DNA of 64,000 nucleotides from Bacteroidales bacterium. Lineage in GTDB: Bacteria; Bacteroidota; Bacteroidia; Bacteroidales; BM520. Positions 13,020 through 55,184 of the stretch are shown piece after piece. Every line of letters starts with the position of its first letter. The first letter of the stretch is position 1. The position numbers were made by a program, and so were the translations under genes. The notes below the pieces were generated by a model. It worked only from the letters and a program-made list of their open reading frames with translations. It made no database searches and was not told the DNA's origin. The stretch is from assembly GCA_028707815.1 (NCBI GenBank), contig JAQWAE010000004.1, forward strand, positions 55,986-119,985, given 5' to 3'.

Positions 13020-13094
13020 GAGATATTAGCTCAGTTGGTTTAGAGCGCTTGCTTGACAGGCAAGAGGTCACTGGTTCGATTCCAGTATATCTCA
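13020..13094 (+). tRNA. tRNA-Val (anticodon GAC)
   Basis: Hand-folded cloverleaf. Acceptor stem GAGATAT/ATATCTC; D-arm GCTC..GAGC; anticodon stem CTTGC/GCAAG with loop TTGACAG; T-arm ACTGG-TTCGATT-CCAGT. No CCA is encoded. Confidence 0.9.
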
Positions 13095-16732: not shown

Positions 16733-16740
16733 CAAAATTA
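16733..16740 (-). promoter_or_regulatory. -7 box TAATTTTG for the alkD-like operon
   Basis: The reverse complement of caaaatta, about 44 nt upstream of the ATG at 16689. Confidence 0.45.
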
Positions 16741-16788
16741 CAGCATTTTTTGTAATTGCATAGAAATTCAGTTAGTTTTTAAATAAAG

Positions 16789-16834
16789 GTAGATTCATTG
16801 TAGGTACGCAGGCATCTTTATCAAAAATAAAGTC
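16789..16834 (+). repeat. Diverged copy of the L-module repeat (core GTAGATTCA)
   Basis: gtagattcattgtaggtacgcaggcatctttatcaaaaataaagtc shares the core and the flanking ...aataaag... with the copies at 23270, 28733 (reverse strand) and 53324/53340. Confidence 0.5.
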
Positions 16835-16860
16835 TATTTGTTTGATATTGCTATTTGAAA

Positions 16861-23086: not shown

Positions 23087-23202
23087 GATTTTTTAATATT
23101 AATACTACCTTCTTAAATCAACAAGATAAGCAGTAATCAATTAATAATTAGTTAGTTAATAATTTAATATTTAATTTTTTACTTTGATTTCAATTTGAAT
23201 TG

Positions 23203-23210
23203 CAAATATA
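23203..23210 (-). promoter_or_regulatory. -7 box TATATTTG for the hydrogenase operon
   Basis: The reverse complement of caaatata, about 117 nt upstream of the ATG at 23086. Confidence 0.4.
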
Positions 23211-23269
23211 GTCTTTATTTTAGAATTAAAGATTAATTTATCGTAATATTTTTAGCGATATAAAAACCC

Positions 23270-23342
23270 GTAGATTCAAGTAGCAAGTGCGAAAATACAA
23301 TAAAGAGTTGAGAATTTCTTCTTTTACTTTTTTTATGATTAG
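23270..23342 (+). repeat. L-module repeat (core GTAGATTCA ... TGCGAAAATACAATAAAGAG)
   Basis: About 80 percent identical by eye to 28672-28733 (reverse complement) and 53340-53390. Confidence 0.7.
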
Positions 23343-23377
23343 AAAAGTAACAAAAAAGTCTTCCGCTGTGTCAAAAC

Positions 23378-23453
23378 CACATCAGCCAAGGCGGGTCTGC
23401 CTTGTCAGTTTATAAATCTTCTGACATGACCCCGAAGGGGTCACATATTTATA
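23378..23453 (+). repeat. R-module repeat (CACATCAGCCAAGGCGGGTC ... CATGACCCCGAAGGGGTCACATATTTATA), hairpin-rich
   Basis: A second copy lies at 54165-54270. It contains the stems caaggc/gccttg, gtcag/ctgac and tgacccc-gaa-ggggtca. Confidence 0.7.
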
Positions 23454-23752
23454 TCTCTAAATTTATGACACCGCCGTCATTACCAAAAAATAGAATCTCT
23501 TCTAATGATAACAGCCATGGCTATGCCTGACATTTTGTCATTTTGTCATGAAATTTTTATTAAAAAATCAAGCTGTTTTTAGCTTCATAAAAGCATAACA
23601 AACTGTTTTAACATGATTTAACGGGCTGATAAACAACAATAACAGCCAATATACGTTTTTCAATAGCGCAATTAAAAATGGTATACTTATTGATTATAGC
23701 ACAGAGCTGAAATTTTTTCAGGATAAATTATTTTACAAAAAATTAAAGGATT

Positions 23753-28539: not shown

Positions 28540-28628
28540 GGTTTTTACACTTTTCAATATAATTTCACACTGCAAAATTACACTTTTCAATATAAAATCC
28601 AAACAAAAACATACATTTTTCAATATAT
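28501..28628 (-). repeat. Four direct repeats TTATATTGAAAAGTGTA (gene orientation) around the ATPase promoter and start
   Basis: Plus-strand copies lie at about 28501-28516, 28546-28562, 28579-28595 and 28611-28628. The two central 17-mers are identical and 33 nt apart. Confidence 0.7.
28573..28580 (-). promoter_or_regulatory. -7 box TAATTTTG for the ATPase gene
   Basis: The reverse complement of caaaatta. It lies between repeat copies, 34 nt upstream of ATG 28539. Confidence 0.45.
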
Positions 28629-28671
28629 TTTACGTTTTTGCAGATCTATCTTCTAAACGCCACACATTAAT

Positions 28672-28733
28672 ATCATACATAAAAGAGTAAAAGAAGAACT
28701 TTTTATTATATTTTCGCAATGCTAATGAATCTA
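28672..28733 (-). repeat. L-module repeat, reverse orientation (ends ...TGAATCTAC on the plus strand)
   Basis: atcatacataaaagagtaaaagaagaactttttattatattttcgcaatgctaatgaatctac aligns with the reverse complement of 23270-23342. Confidence 0.7.
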
Positions 28734-28766
28734 CCTATAATAACATTCAAAACTTAATATTATTAA

Positions 28767-28774
28767 GTAACTTT
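28767..28774 (+). promoter_or_regulatory. -7 box TAACTTTG for the CDP-alcohol transferase/TauE operon
   Basis: TAACTTTG lies 25 nt upstream of the ATG at 28800. Confidence 0.5.
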
Positions 28775-28799
28775 GCAGGCAATTTTTTAAATATTATCA

Positions 28800-53270: not shown

Positions 53271-53278
53271 CAAAGTTA
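53271..53278 (-). promoter_or_regulatory. -7 box TAACTTTG for the pigment operon
   Basis: The reverse complement of caaagtta, about 50 nt upstream of the ATG at 53221. Confidence 0.45.
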
Positions 53279-53323: not shown

Positions 53324-53390
53324 GTAGATTCAAGTACGCGTAGATTCATTAGCATTGCGAAAGTACAATAAAGAGTCGAGAAATAATAAA
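53324..53390 (+). repeat. L-module repeat with a tandemly duplicated core (GTAGATTCA at 53324 and 53340)
   Basis: gtagattcaagtacgc gtagattcattagcattgcgaaagtacaataaagagtcgag. Confidence 0.7.
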
Positions 53391-53394
53391 GAAT

Positions 53395-53907
53395 TTATTT
53401 TTTTGTCATAATTACAATATATTCGTTACTCATTGTATCTACTTTTGCGCCATGTTTATTGGTAGGACTTGTTTTAGACGGCATACGTTTATTTGGTATT
53501 CGGCGAACAATAGTTTTTTCATGATTAAAACCTTGTTTTTCAAACATTTCAGCTGTAAAATAATCCAGCGGAATTTGAACACCTTTCACATTACGATTTC
53601 CTACGACATAACAAATACATCCACCACTTCGTATAGTTGGAGCTATGTTTTTGATAGAATTGTAGTAATCATTCAGAAAGGCTACCACTTCCGAATATCG
53701 CTTACAGTCAGCTTGTTCTATTTTTTGCAACTCGTTTTTTATAGTTTTGGTTTCAAAAATTGCTTTTTTTTGCTTTTTTCCACCCATTAGAAGATTGTCT
53801 AAATTTTTCGCATTTGGCAAATTAAACCACTCGTTTGCCCAACGAGAAAATTGTCCGTAAGCGACTGTTGTATGGCTATCGCCGTAAGGTGGTGAAGTAA
53901 CAATCAT
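53395..53907 (-). pseudogene. N-terminally truncated N6/N4 DNA methyltransferase (begins at catalytic motif IV, SPPY)
   Basis: The ORF begins MIVTSPPYG. An in-frame TGA lies 18 nt upstream, and no AdoMet-binding motif I is found anywhere in the 170 aa. Confidence 0.55.
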
Positions 53908-54135
53908 ATCAAAGGAACGGAATCATTTTATTTTCATAAAGCAGATATTTATGAAAAACCCACTTTGCGTAAATTTCTAAATTTATTAGATAAAGACTTG
54001 ATTATGTTCGATATTCGTATTGGCTCATATCAATCCGGGAGAAATTTCGGAAAAGCACACGACCACGGTAGCGGATTTAGAATTTTGGAAAAGAATCTAA
54101 ACAAGCTATATTCTGAACACGAAAAAGTAGAGTAA
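53896..54135 (+). pseudogene. Unassigned ORF remnant (possible 3' fragment of the partner restriction gene)
   Basis: The frame is open over 53896-54135, but the only ATG gives 43 aa (MFDIRIGSYQSGRNFGKAHDHGSGFRILEKNL...). It is divergent from the truncated methylase. No family recognised. Confidence 0.25.
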
Positions 54136-54164
54136 ACACACAATAATCTCCATCTTTTTTAACA

Positions 54165-54270
54165 CACATCAGCCAAGGCGGGTCCGCATTGTTGCTTCGC
54201 AACAATTTTGTGTTTGCCTTATCAGCTTATAAATCCTTTAACATGACCCCGAAGGGGGCACATATTTATA
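54165..54270 (+). repeat. R-module repeat, second copy, carrying a ~30-nt hairpin insertion
   Basis: It has the same ends as 23378-23453. The insertion attgttgc-ttc-gcaacaat sits inside the loop of the caaggc/gcctt stem. Confidence 0.7.
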
Positions 54271-54281
54271 GACAGAAATTA

Positions 54282-55184
54282 TTACACCCGTAATTTTACA
54301 GCATCTAACAAAGTATCTATTTTAAAATCGAAAACACTACGCATTTCACCCGCCATACAAAAACCGCATTTGTCACACATTCCCATTGTTTTACCAACAC
54401 ATTCATTTAACAGTGTGCCATCGGGCAATATGTAATTTGTAACCCAACACTGACGCTCAAAATTATTATGCTTCATAAACTCCAAACCCGAAACAGAGTT
54501 CATAATAGGATATTTAGCCTTTTTCATCGATATCAACAAGTCGATAATTTCCACACGCTTATCCAAGTCAAGAAACAAAGACTCAGTACCTTTATACGGC
54601 GTATGAAAATTCAAAGAAATCAATTTAATTGCCGGATTGTCTTTTGCATAATTCACTGTATCTCTGACGTTTGTATAATTCAAACTGTTGATAGTCATAT
54701 TCACGTTAAGATTTTTATGATGACTTTCGGCTATGTTTTTTTCGAGCTTTTTAAAAGCTCCCGCTCCGCGTATTTCATCATGAAATTTCTCCGTTCCATC
54801 TAAACTGACCCAGATAGAATCTGCCAAACTACCGGCAAAAGAACCTTGCGCATTAGTGGTTATAGTCGTGGAAAAAAAGCCGATTTCTTTCGCAAGACGT
54901 ATCAAGTCGTTGACAGTCTTATCTCCATCACGCCAAATTGTAGGCTCACCACCTTCAAAATCAATAAAACGCGATCCTAATTCATAAGAATAACGCAACT
55001 CGTCTTCCACTTGATTATACGATTTAACTATCGGATTATCAATATTATAAACACCACAATGTCTACATCGCAAATTACATTTATCTGTGATAAACAACAC
55101 TGTTTGTAATGGTTTTTGTCTTGCGAACAGTCTTACATCAACAAACCATCCGCCAAGATACATCATTTCCAATATTTTATTCAT
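54282..55184 (-). CDS. Radical SAM protein with a C-terminal Cys-rich (SPASM/twitch-like) region
   Basis: CNLRCRHC near the N-terminus and a C-terminal CDKCGFC. The start is set at ATG 55184 (MNKILEMM), 1 nt after the upstream stop. Confidence 0.8.
   Translation of the reverse strand: MNKILEMMYLGGWFVDVRLFARQKPLQTVLFITDKCNLRCRHCGVYNIDNPIVKSYNQVEDELRYSYELGSRFIDFEGGEPTIWRDGDKTVNDLIRLAKEIGFFSTTITTNAQGSFAGSLADSIWVSLDGTEKFHDEIRGAGAFKKLEKNIAESHHKNLNVNMTINSLNYTNVRDTVNYAKDNPAIKLISLNFHTPYKGTESLFLDLDKRVEIIDLLISMKKAKYPIMNSVSGLEFMKHNNFERQCWVTNYILPDGTLLNECVGKTMGMCDKCGFCMAGEMRSVFDFKIDTLLDAVKLRV

Follow-up and report, generated by a model that had tools for sequence, protein, structure and literature searches.

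The paired short repeats found upstream of a hydrogenase and a pigment operon in the window (i.e., the whole stretch of 64,000 nt of Bacteroidales DNA analysed here) stem, with high probability, from an IS30-family insertion sequence (IS), of which they represent decayed copies no longer able to move autonomously; in one of these copies a restriction-modification (R-M) cassette became lodged and was then centrally deleted. Both the repeats and the dead cassette are of a known kind, IS30-family debris, and the new aspect of this otherwise ordinary debris is its promoter-anchored placement.

Extent and architecture of the repeats in the window

The initial annotation had described two modules, L and R, at two loci (locus 1 next to the hydrogenase operon and locus 2 next to the pigment operon), and the similarity of both modules, being real and far above chance, survives statistical scrutiny. 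The R copies align over 59 nt at 88% identity (23395-23453 vs 54212-54270; repeat search within the window), with a BLAST E=3e-16, and an identical 20-mer (CACATCAGCCAAGGCGGGTC) lies upstream of the 59-nt block in both of them, the two blocks being split by a 30-nt indel. For the L core (GCGAAARTAYAATAAARAG), the window contains three instances vs 0.01 expected. The 30-nt length difference represents a deletion in locus 1, the long form seen at locus 2 being the norm for the family.

The boundaries, however, had to be redrawn. Both of the L copies originally placed at 23270-23342 and 53324-53390 exist, but an inverted third (28697-28735) and a reduced fourth one (16788-16860) are also present, which brings the window to four L copies (at ~16788, ~23269, ~28735 in inverted orientation and ~53339) and two R copies. 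The stretch common to both L loci amounts to ~47 nt only (23269-23315; 53339-53382) and is referred to as T hereafter; the remainder of the formerly described L, ending at 23342, belongs to an AT-rich hairpin (H), whose left arm it forms and which is absent from locus 2, and 53324-53337 is a separate, older remnant. Locus 1, rather than consisting of two modules with a 35-nt spacer, is a single uninterrupted element running from 23269 to ~23479. The similarity possibly, albeit weakly, extends ~25 nt beyond the previously assumed end of R. The resulting architectures (parts in Table 1) are T-H-R(short)-E' for locus 1, T plus half of H for locus 3, 12 nt of T joined to an inner module for the copy at 16.8 kb, and T ... 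X'-R-E' with an R-M cassette remnant in between for locus 2. The possible E-like hairpin of locus 2 covers, at 54282-54293, the stop and the last three codons of the radical-SAM gene.

Table 1. Parts of the repeat copies, neighbouring predicted promoter boxes and cassette remnant in the window.
Feature	Position	Strand	Evidence or remark
Predicted -7 box of the fourth copy, TAATTTTG	16733-16740	-	Distance to the terminus: 48 nt
Fourth copy: T terminus GGTAGATTCATTG joined to inner module J by internal deletion	16788-16860	+	Abuts the stop codon of a ComEC-like gene
Predicted -7 box of the hndB/hydrogenase operon, TATATTTG	23203-23210	-	Distance to the T1 terminus: 59 nt
T1, IS30-type terminal inverted repeat (core of L)	23269-23315	+	nhmmer E=7e-12; first 10-11 nt as in both E. 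coli IS30A inverted repeats
T1 outer end, CGTAGATTCAA			Points to the hydrogenase operon
H, AT-rich imperfect palindrome adjoining T	23316-23358	+	nhmmer E=3e-11; in 11 aligned copies
R1, sub-terminal GC-richer module with three hairpins; short variant without the 30-nt inner hairpin	23359-23453	+	nhmmer E=4e-25
Possible partial E module, hairpin TGACACCGCCGTCA (tentative)	23454-23479	+	Aligns with AAATTTATGACACAGCTGYCA of L049, L082 and L096
Third copy: T3 (28697-28735) and left arm of H (28680-28696)	28680-28735	-	nhmmer E=2e-7; points to a CDP-alcohol phosphatidyltransferase gene
Predicted -7 box of the third copy, TAACTTTG	28769-28776		33 nt away from T3
Remnant (14 nt) of the terminus of an older T, other subtype, GTAGATTCAAGTAC	53324-53337	+	Arrangement recurs independently in L108
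Predicted -7 box of T2, TAACTTTG	53271-53278	-	61 nt from T2
T2, IS30-type inverted repeat	53339-53382	+	nhmmer E=5e-13; points to the tyrosine/aromatic ammonia-lyase (flexirubin-type pigment) operon
N4/N6 DNA methyltransferase, C-terminal 174 codons; true stop kept, ~59 N-terminal codons lost	53395-53916	-	Pfam PF01555; 75% identity to the intact 232-aa L173 homologue, aligned to the stop
MvaI/BcnI-family restriction endonuclease, C-terminal 74 codons; stop kept, ~175 N-terminal codons lost	53914-54135	+	Pfam PF15515, E=3e-10; tblastx to the 3' end of the L173 REase gene
3' end of optional module X, CTCCATCTTTTTTAACACA	54143-54164	+	Identical placement before the R core in L141 and L157
R2, canonical long R with inner hairpin ATTGTTGC-TTCG-GCAACAAT	54165-54270	+	nhmmer E=5e-31
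Possible E-like hairpin TTACACCCGTAA (tentative)	54271-54293	+	Overlaps the stop codon of the radical-SAM gene

A dispersed modular family

Counting copies in related DNA, which the initial annotation had put forward as a check, revealed a dispersed family: a metagenome scan with the L core returned at least 118 stretches, and, among the matches listed, at least 35 distinct true T copies were found, all of them in metagenome Ga0265294. Over 2332 nt, a contig of this metagenome (L125) shows 100% identity to the window, and the extra copies, all coming from this one metagenome, are inferred to belong to the window's organism. Many of the T copies are situated at contig ends, and Logan contigs from other samples break inside T2, both being the signature of a multi-copy repeat.

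The order of the modules is fixed in the alignments (T, optional B, H, R, E and then further modules, with X being optional as well), and copies differ from one another by internal deletions and small insertions (B, X) that leave this order unchanged, most of them being devoid of both transposase and far end. T spans 47 nt, its outer boundary being sharp at CGTAGATTCA in ~35 copies and its inner boundary being GAGAA(A)T; B is ~120 nt long; H, the AT-rich palindrome/hairpin, follows T (or B); the canonical form of R comprises ~125 nt including the inner hairpin, of which R1 of the window is a deletion variant; and X (~105 nt) is an insertion close to where R starts. As a rule, T, H and R are contiguous (at least 10 other copies), and solo T copies, whose neighbours among the matches listed are ordinary or defence genes and no transposase, are also common. 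Module J (L049:1696-1830, L142:1-113 and window 16811-16860) contains a hairpin resembling a terminator (GGGACTTTAT...ATAAAGTCTC, then a T run), as well as a long inverted repeat (ATTGATGTTCTTTGG...CACAAAAGAACATCAAT), and lies within the 5' untranslated region of the decayed transposase gene described below. Two near-consensus -7 boxes (CAAATTTG and TGCATTTG) directed from T to H-R are found in module B of L082:6117-6257, and B-containing copies might have their hairpin region transcribed.

Such boxes, along with the three to four hairpins of R, the terminator-like hairpin at its 3' side, a 30-nt indel which is itself a clean hairpin inserted in a loop, and one compensatory stem variant (GACCCC/GGGGTC vs GATGCC/GGCATC in L068), are what one would expect if R (with H) were a structured small-RNA gene or riboregulator family and the repeats its paralogous RNA genes. 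We consider this decidedly unlikely: Rfam 15 yielded no credible match even at E<=5-10 for locus 1, a canonical copy or an X-containing copy, fold z-scores were modest (-1 to -2.9), the covariation term was ~0 on either strand with both strands folding equally well (the R copies being too similar to reveal covariation), and R is always linked to an IS end and absent from relatives. Riboswitch, sRNA, SRP-RNA and tmRNA-like readings of R were rejected on the same lack of Rfam matches, weak folding and lack of covariation, the likeness of CAGCCAAGGC to SRP RNA being coincidental.

IS30-type termini and transposase remnants

Elements of the IS30 family, of which IS4351 of Bacteroides is a member, have terminal inverted repeats of 20-30 bp and generate target duplications of 2-3 bp. 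The terminal 10-11 bases of T (GTAGATTCAA) are those of both terminal inverted repeats of E. coli IS30A (IRL as well as IRR). Each of these repeats starts with TGTAGATTCAAT... in strain K-12, and T begins CGTAGATTCAA or CGTAGATTCAT. In four of the contigs (L049, L082, L096 and L119), T-H-R-E runs into frameshifted coding remnants on the opposite strand (MMYKQLTSEQRYVISA, RPPEVDGKRFGDWEMDT and FAHPYSSWEKGAIENMNKLIR), which, once concatenated, match the NCBIfam model NF033563 "IS30 family transposase" with an E=7e-17 and 62 bits (below the 80-bit full-length cut-off of the model, the queries being fragments). Profile ranking of the remnants placed IS30 best and IS21 a distant second, and the IS30 signatures GDWEMDT and AHPYSSWEKG..EN.N.LIR are recognisable in them. 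At the far end of L049, ~760 bp from T, a degenerate inverted T is found.

As the C-terminus of the transposase remnant is directed toward T, T is the transposase-distal inverted repeat (IRR), and, because the order T...R, E, transposase remnants, inverted T is fixed, L is, on sequence grounds, a real terminus of the IS, with R representing non-coding IS DNA in a sub-terminal position instead of the other end. Neither an intact transposase nor a complete element with two good ends was recovered, the assignment being made from the remnants and the 10-11 terminal bases, and all four of the window copies have a single end and no transposase DNA. The earlier observation that terminal inverted repeats and target duplications are lacking holds for typical copies because these are truncated IS remnants; no consistent flank repeat that could be taken for a target-site duplication was found, the far ends being missing or decayed. 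The T...T' pairs present in L132 and L155 look like two elements joined at H.

Identical transposase-remnant peptides are encoded in L049 and L082, and remnants recur in four contigs, which suggests that the family may have been amplified after its decay, like a MITE mobilised in trans. IS30 is known to select targets in two ways, one of which is to insert beside inverted repeats of its own (PMC9333248), and the nested or abutting copies observed here (window 53324-53337; L108; L090, where an R end abuts a new T; L132 and L155, arranged head-to-head) fit this habit. The history that we favour would begin with an IS30-family IS colonising the uncultured Bacteroidales species, with L (T, 47 nt) being the IS end downstream of the transposase gene and H, R and E making up a long hairpin-rich non-coding stretch between the T end and that gene; copies would have arrived by IS30-type copy-out/paste-in transposition, presumably mobilised in trans, and the nested termini would have stemmed from insertion beside the element's own inverted repeats.

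Some features set the family apart from IS30 elements as they are usually known. It shares with them the beginning of the terminal inverted repeat, (N)GTAGATTCAA, and the DDE transposase remnants, but the hairpin-rich non-coding stretch from gene to end is unusually long (250-400 nt), the copies are placed with respect to promoters and not at a palindromic hot-spot sequence, and neither an intact copy nor a visible target duplication is present.

A centrally deleted R-M cassette at locus 2

Pfam recognises, within the 775-bp segment that separates the two modules at locus 2, part of an N6_N4 methyltransferase as well as the C-terminal portion of an MvaI/BcnI endonuclease. An intact homologous cassette was found in contig L173, where it spans 2383 bp and consists of two divergent arms (a C-protein gene followed by that of the 248-aa REase on one side, and ORF179 followed by the gene of the 232-aa MTase on the other), with no T or R modules nearby. 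The window retains both of the outer cassette ends, with their stop codons, fused at one point, whereas the C-protein gene and the 179-aa ORF of L173 are missing from the remnant (53395-54135); as the two outer ends with stops remain and are joined at one point, a single central deletion of ~1.64 kb is indicated. As the REase is reduced to its last 74 codons and the MTase to its last 174, the cassette of the window is not an intact type II MvaI/BcnI R-M system. Such a deletion amounts to the inactivation of the endonuclease and the methylase together in one step.

The cassette is found 12 nt from the inner edge of T, while on its other side the last ~20 nt of X are followed by R. No cassette DNA is present in other family copies among the matches listed. 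Of the three options that had been considered initially, the first one, i.e., a small non-autonomous element that received an R-M cassette which later decayed, was essentially right: contiguous T-H-R is usual (at least 10 copies), the intact cassette is devoid of T and R, and that of the window has lost its middle ~1.64 kb. At locus 2, in this reading, the compact cassette replaced H, the start of R and most of X, after which one central deletion removed the 5' parts of both divergent R-M genes.

The second option, under which a mobile element with R-M cargo is bounded by L on one side and R on the other and has the 185-bp unit as its miniature derivative, was correct in that L is a mobile-element end (an IS30-type inverted repeat), but R is internal, and the cargo of the parent was a transposase, the R-M system being found in no other copy listed. 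Passenger genes are known to occur in IS elements, T does represent the end of a transposon, and T and the R core are as close as ~12 and ~30 nt, respectively, to the stop codons of the cassette; in its full form, however, we judge this option very improbable, given that longer copies continue from R into E, transposase remnants, J and an inverted T, that R-M DNA is absent from all other copies among the matches listed, that the intact homologue has no T/R flanks, and that locus 2 is without H and the start of R, which fits replacement and not an original architecture. A further arrangement that could be quoted in favour of cargo is that of L141:11147-14409, where two TIR-domain (defence-type) genes and a small ORF are flanked by a solo T on one side and by a T-B-H-X-R unit on the other, T supplying the last ORF with its final codons and stop. 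The third option, a recombination hotspot, is plausible and has some support in the nested or abutting copies, the IS30 habit (PMC9333248) and these TIR-domain genes. IS remnants may recurrently trap defence genes, the present instances being two cases only and no proof.

Genomic context and comparison with relatives

Locus 1 is situated in the divergent intergenic region between the hndB/NuoF-like/[FeFe]-hydrogenase operon and htrA, and locus 2 has a radical-SAM gene on one side and an aromatic ammonia-lyase/flexirubin-type polyketide operon on the other. Identical loci are carried by the metagenome-assembled genome GCA_028699335.1 and many metagenome assemblies, both regions being ~100% identical across all conspecific contigs, with every conspecific assembly carrying identical copies and none documenting a recent movement. 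Two MEGAHIT contigs from different samples (L017 and L018) end 84-97 nt upstream of hndB (window ~23170-23183), in unique DNA between the hndB promoter box and the gene and not in a repeat, and may represent strain variation.

Comparison of orthologous intergenic regions, which had been suggested for sister strains, was carried out with relatives instead, and L and R are missing from the hndB and TAL upstream regions of the nearest relatives examined (HndB identity of 82-88% and TAL identity of 72-73%, with the next relative, at 73% TAL, being too distant to provide an empty site). A reading of the repeats as operon-specific regulatory DNA that is conserved along with these operons was rejected for this reason. 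Scanning of GTDB species-representative contigs with an 18-mer of R gave 24 matches, all of which were chance ones of 18-21 nt in unrelated phyla, so either the species representative is without these loci or the species is unrepresented. No module matches were found in plasmid and phage collections, and a viral collection gave no match with the T pattern and three with the R-core pattern, none of which carries a module.

Two other features of the window were recorded along the way: two to three tandem copies of a ~33-nt unit (TTACACTTTTCAATATAA...) in the intergenic stretch 28545-28640, adjoining T3 and upstream of an AAA_14/DUF4143 gene, and a tRNA gene at 13020-13094 (Rfam, 70.8 bits), which is the sole match in the window reaching the gathering threshold.

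Placement relative to predicted promoters

The initial annotation had also noted that the unit has the same orientation toward the downstream operon at both loci, and this is general across the family: among the matches listed, 26 of 31 T copies have their outer end pointing to the 5' side of the gene closest to them (26 vs 5). When promoters are predicted from the Bacteroidetes sigma-A -7 consensus TAnnTTTG, the predicted box starts 57-61 nt beyond the T terminus in 19 of the 34 distinct copies (mode 59; matches listed), with a minor group spaced at 48-53 nt; the window copies (16.8 kb, locus 1, locus 3 and locus 2) are 48, 59, 33 and 61 nt away from the predicted boxes of their neighbours, respectively. 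TAnnTTTG occurs in the window at 5.9e-4 per nt, and the binomial probability of at least 19 out of 34 is 4e-11 even if a 10% chance (p=0.1) is allowed per 5-nt window.

Hidden homology or a target motif within the 59-nt spacer was rejected as a cause, as the spacers are unrelated (mean pairwise identity of 0.39 vs 0.35 for shuffled ones) and no flank motif next to T was found beyond the terminal base; T being itself the promoter was likewise rejected, the consensus -7 boxes being outside the element, in unique DNA. The distance from T to the start codon varies widely, and the genes downstream are unrelated housekeeping ones (pheT, gyrA, rpsF, ftsY, gpsA, a DEAD-box helicase gene, argF, Dpp5, GlsA and others). 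In L155, each of two divergent predicted promoters has a T at 60 nt, and at locus 2 and in L108 a full T is found at 59-61 nt even though an older terminus remnant fills part of the spacer, which looks like re-targeting of the same position. Given that positions -12 to -5 with respect to the transcription start are taken up by the -7 box (PMC9723704) and that the spacing is ~59 nt, the T terminus would be near -72.

It is quite possible, if somewhat short of probable, that this IS30-family Bacteroidales element picks its targets by measuring from sigma-A promoters, placing its transposase-distal inverted repeat ~59 bp upstream of the -7 box (~-72) in one orientation and with no motif at the insertion point; this would make it a second, independently evolved promoter-anchored system in bacteria, relying on another transposase family than TnGBS/ISLre2/ISKra4 and operating in a phylum whose promoters are unusual. 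The 59-nt spacing to the -7 box would then result from promoter-anchored target choice analogous to that of the latter elements. To our knowledge, promoter-anchored placement has been described neither for IS30-family elements nor for Bacteroidetes promoters.

Selection, and not insertion preference, could arguably have produced the same spacing if T or the whole T-H-R were a functional cis-regulatory cassette (an upstream activator or architectural-protein site at ~-72 to -118). Fixed spacing and constant orientation would be expected of such a site, the minor 48-53 nt cluster is about one helical turn closer, the T terminus is retained even in the most reduced copies, and the downstream genes are growth-related housekeeping ones. 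This, nevertheless, seems unlikely to us: 47 nt at 85-100% identity and linked transposase remnants speak for recent descent by transposition and not for convergent sites, orthologous promoters of relatives work without T, and no known factor or motif was identified for T, while more than 19 independent random insertions within ±2 nt are implausible without targeting. A cis-regulatory role is, moreover, compatible with an IS origin, in which case it could be co-option.

Likeness to known mobile and repetitive elements

Promoter targeting of the TnGBS/ISLre2/ISKra4 kind is carried out by Mutator-like (p-MULT) transposases, which insert 15-17 bp upstream of the -35 box (PMC3942029). The copies described here resemble those elements in being oriented, at a fixed distance upstream of sigma-A promoters and with the same end promoter-proximal, in a way that avoids gene disruption (PMC3942029), but their transposase remnants are IS30-type and not Mutator-like (p-MULT 3/4), and their end is 59 nt upstream of the predicted -7 box, i.e., ~35 nt upstream of a would-be -33 element.

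Miniature inverted-repeat elements (MITEs) and mosaic repeats offer another comparison. The family is short, non-coding, multi-copy and IS-derived as MITEs are, whereas an inverted-repeat pair and a target duplication per copy are lacking, T being on one side only in the window copies and in the majority of the remaining ones. Comparable mosaic intergenic repeats/MITEs include pneumococcal BOX and the Correia elements of Neisseria. With BrickBuilt of P. gingivalis (PMC4596501), the family shares being short, non-coding, multi-copy, species-restricted, strictly intergenic, modular, hairpin-rich and promoter-near, but its typical copies have one IS end instead of a terminal inverted-repeat pair, and its modules are deletion variants of one parent order and not tandem bricks.

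The GTAG motif at the extremity of a dispersed intergenic repeat is, in turn, reminiscent of the GTAG REPs, i.e., RAYT-associated GC-rich palindromes of 20-40 bp with a terminal GTAG, unreported in Bacteroidetes (PMC3733652). T, however, although having GTAG near its tip, is no palindrome of this kind, REPs are mostly situated downstream of genes whereas T copies are upstream, and the linked transposase is a DDE one of the IS30 type and not a Y1 RAYT, no RAYT having been seen. REP/RAYT, integron attC and IS200/IS605-derived palindromic elements were dropped as candidates after the IS30 end and the transposase remnants had been found.

Implications

At face value, all of the repeats are remains of an IS, the split copy holding a dead R-M cassette in addition, and they should be annotated accordingly. 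The case also illustrates how IS remnants may turn into landing pads for defence genes. Most importantly, however, a transposon end is found here at a near-constant distance and in a near-constant orientation from the predicted promoters of unrelated essential genes (gyrA, pheT, rpsF, ftsY), a geometry which suggests a safe-harbour targeting mechanism that would read promoters rather than sequence. If true, promoter-directed transposition would extend beyond the Mutator-like elements of Firmicutes, and the family would provide a handle on what is recognised of Bacteroidetes promoters upstream of -33, as well as, possibly, a tool for inserting DNA beside Bacteroidales promoters without gene disruption.
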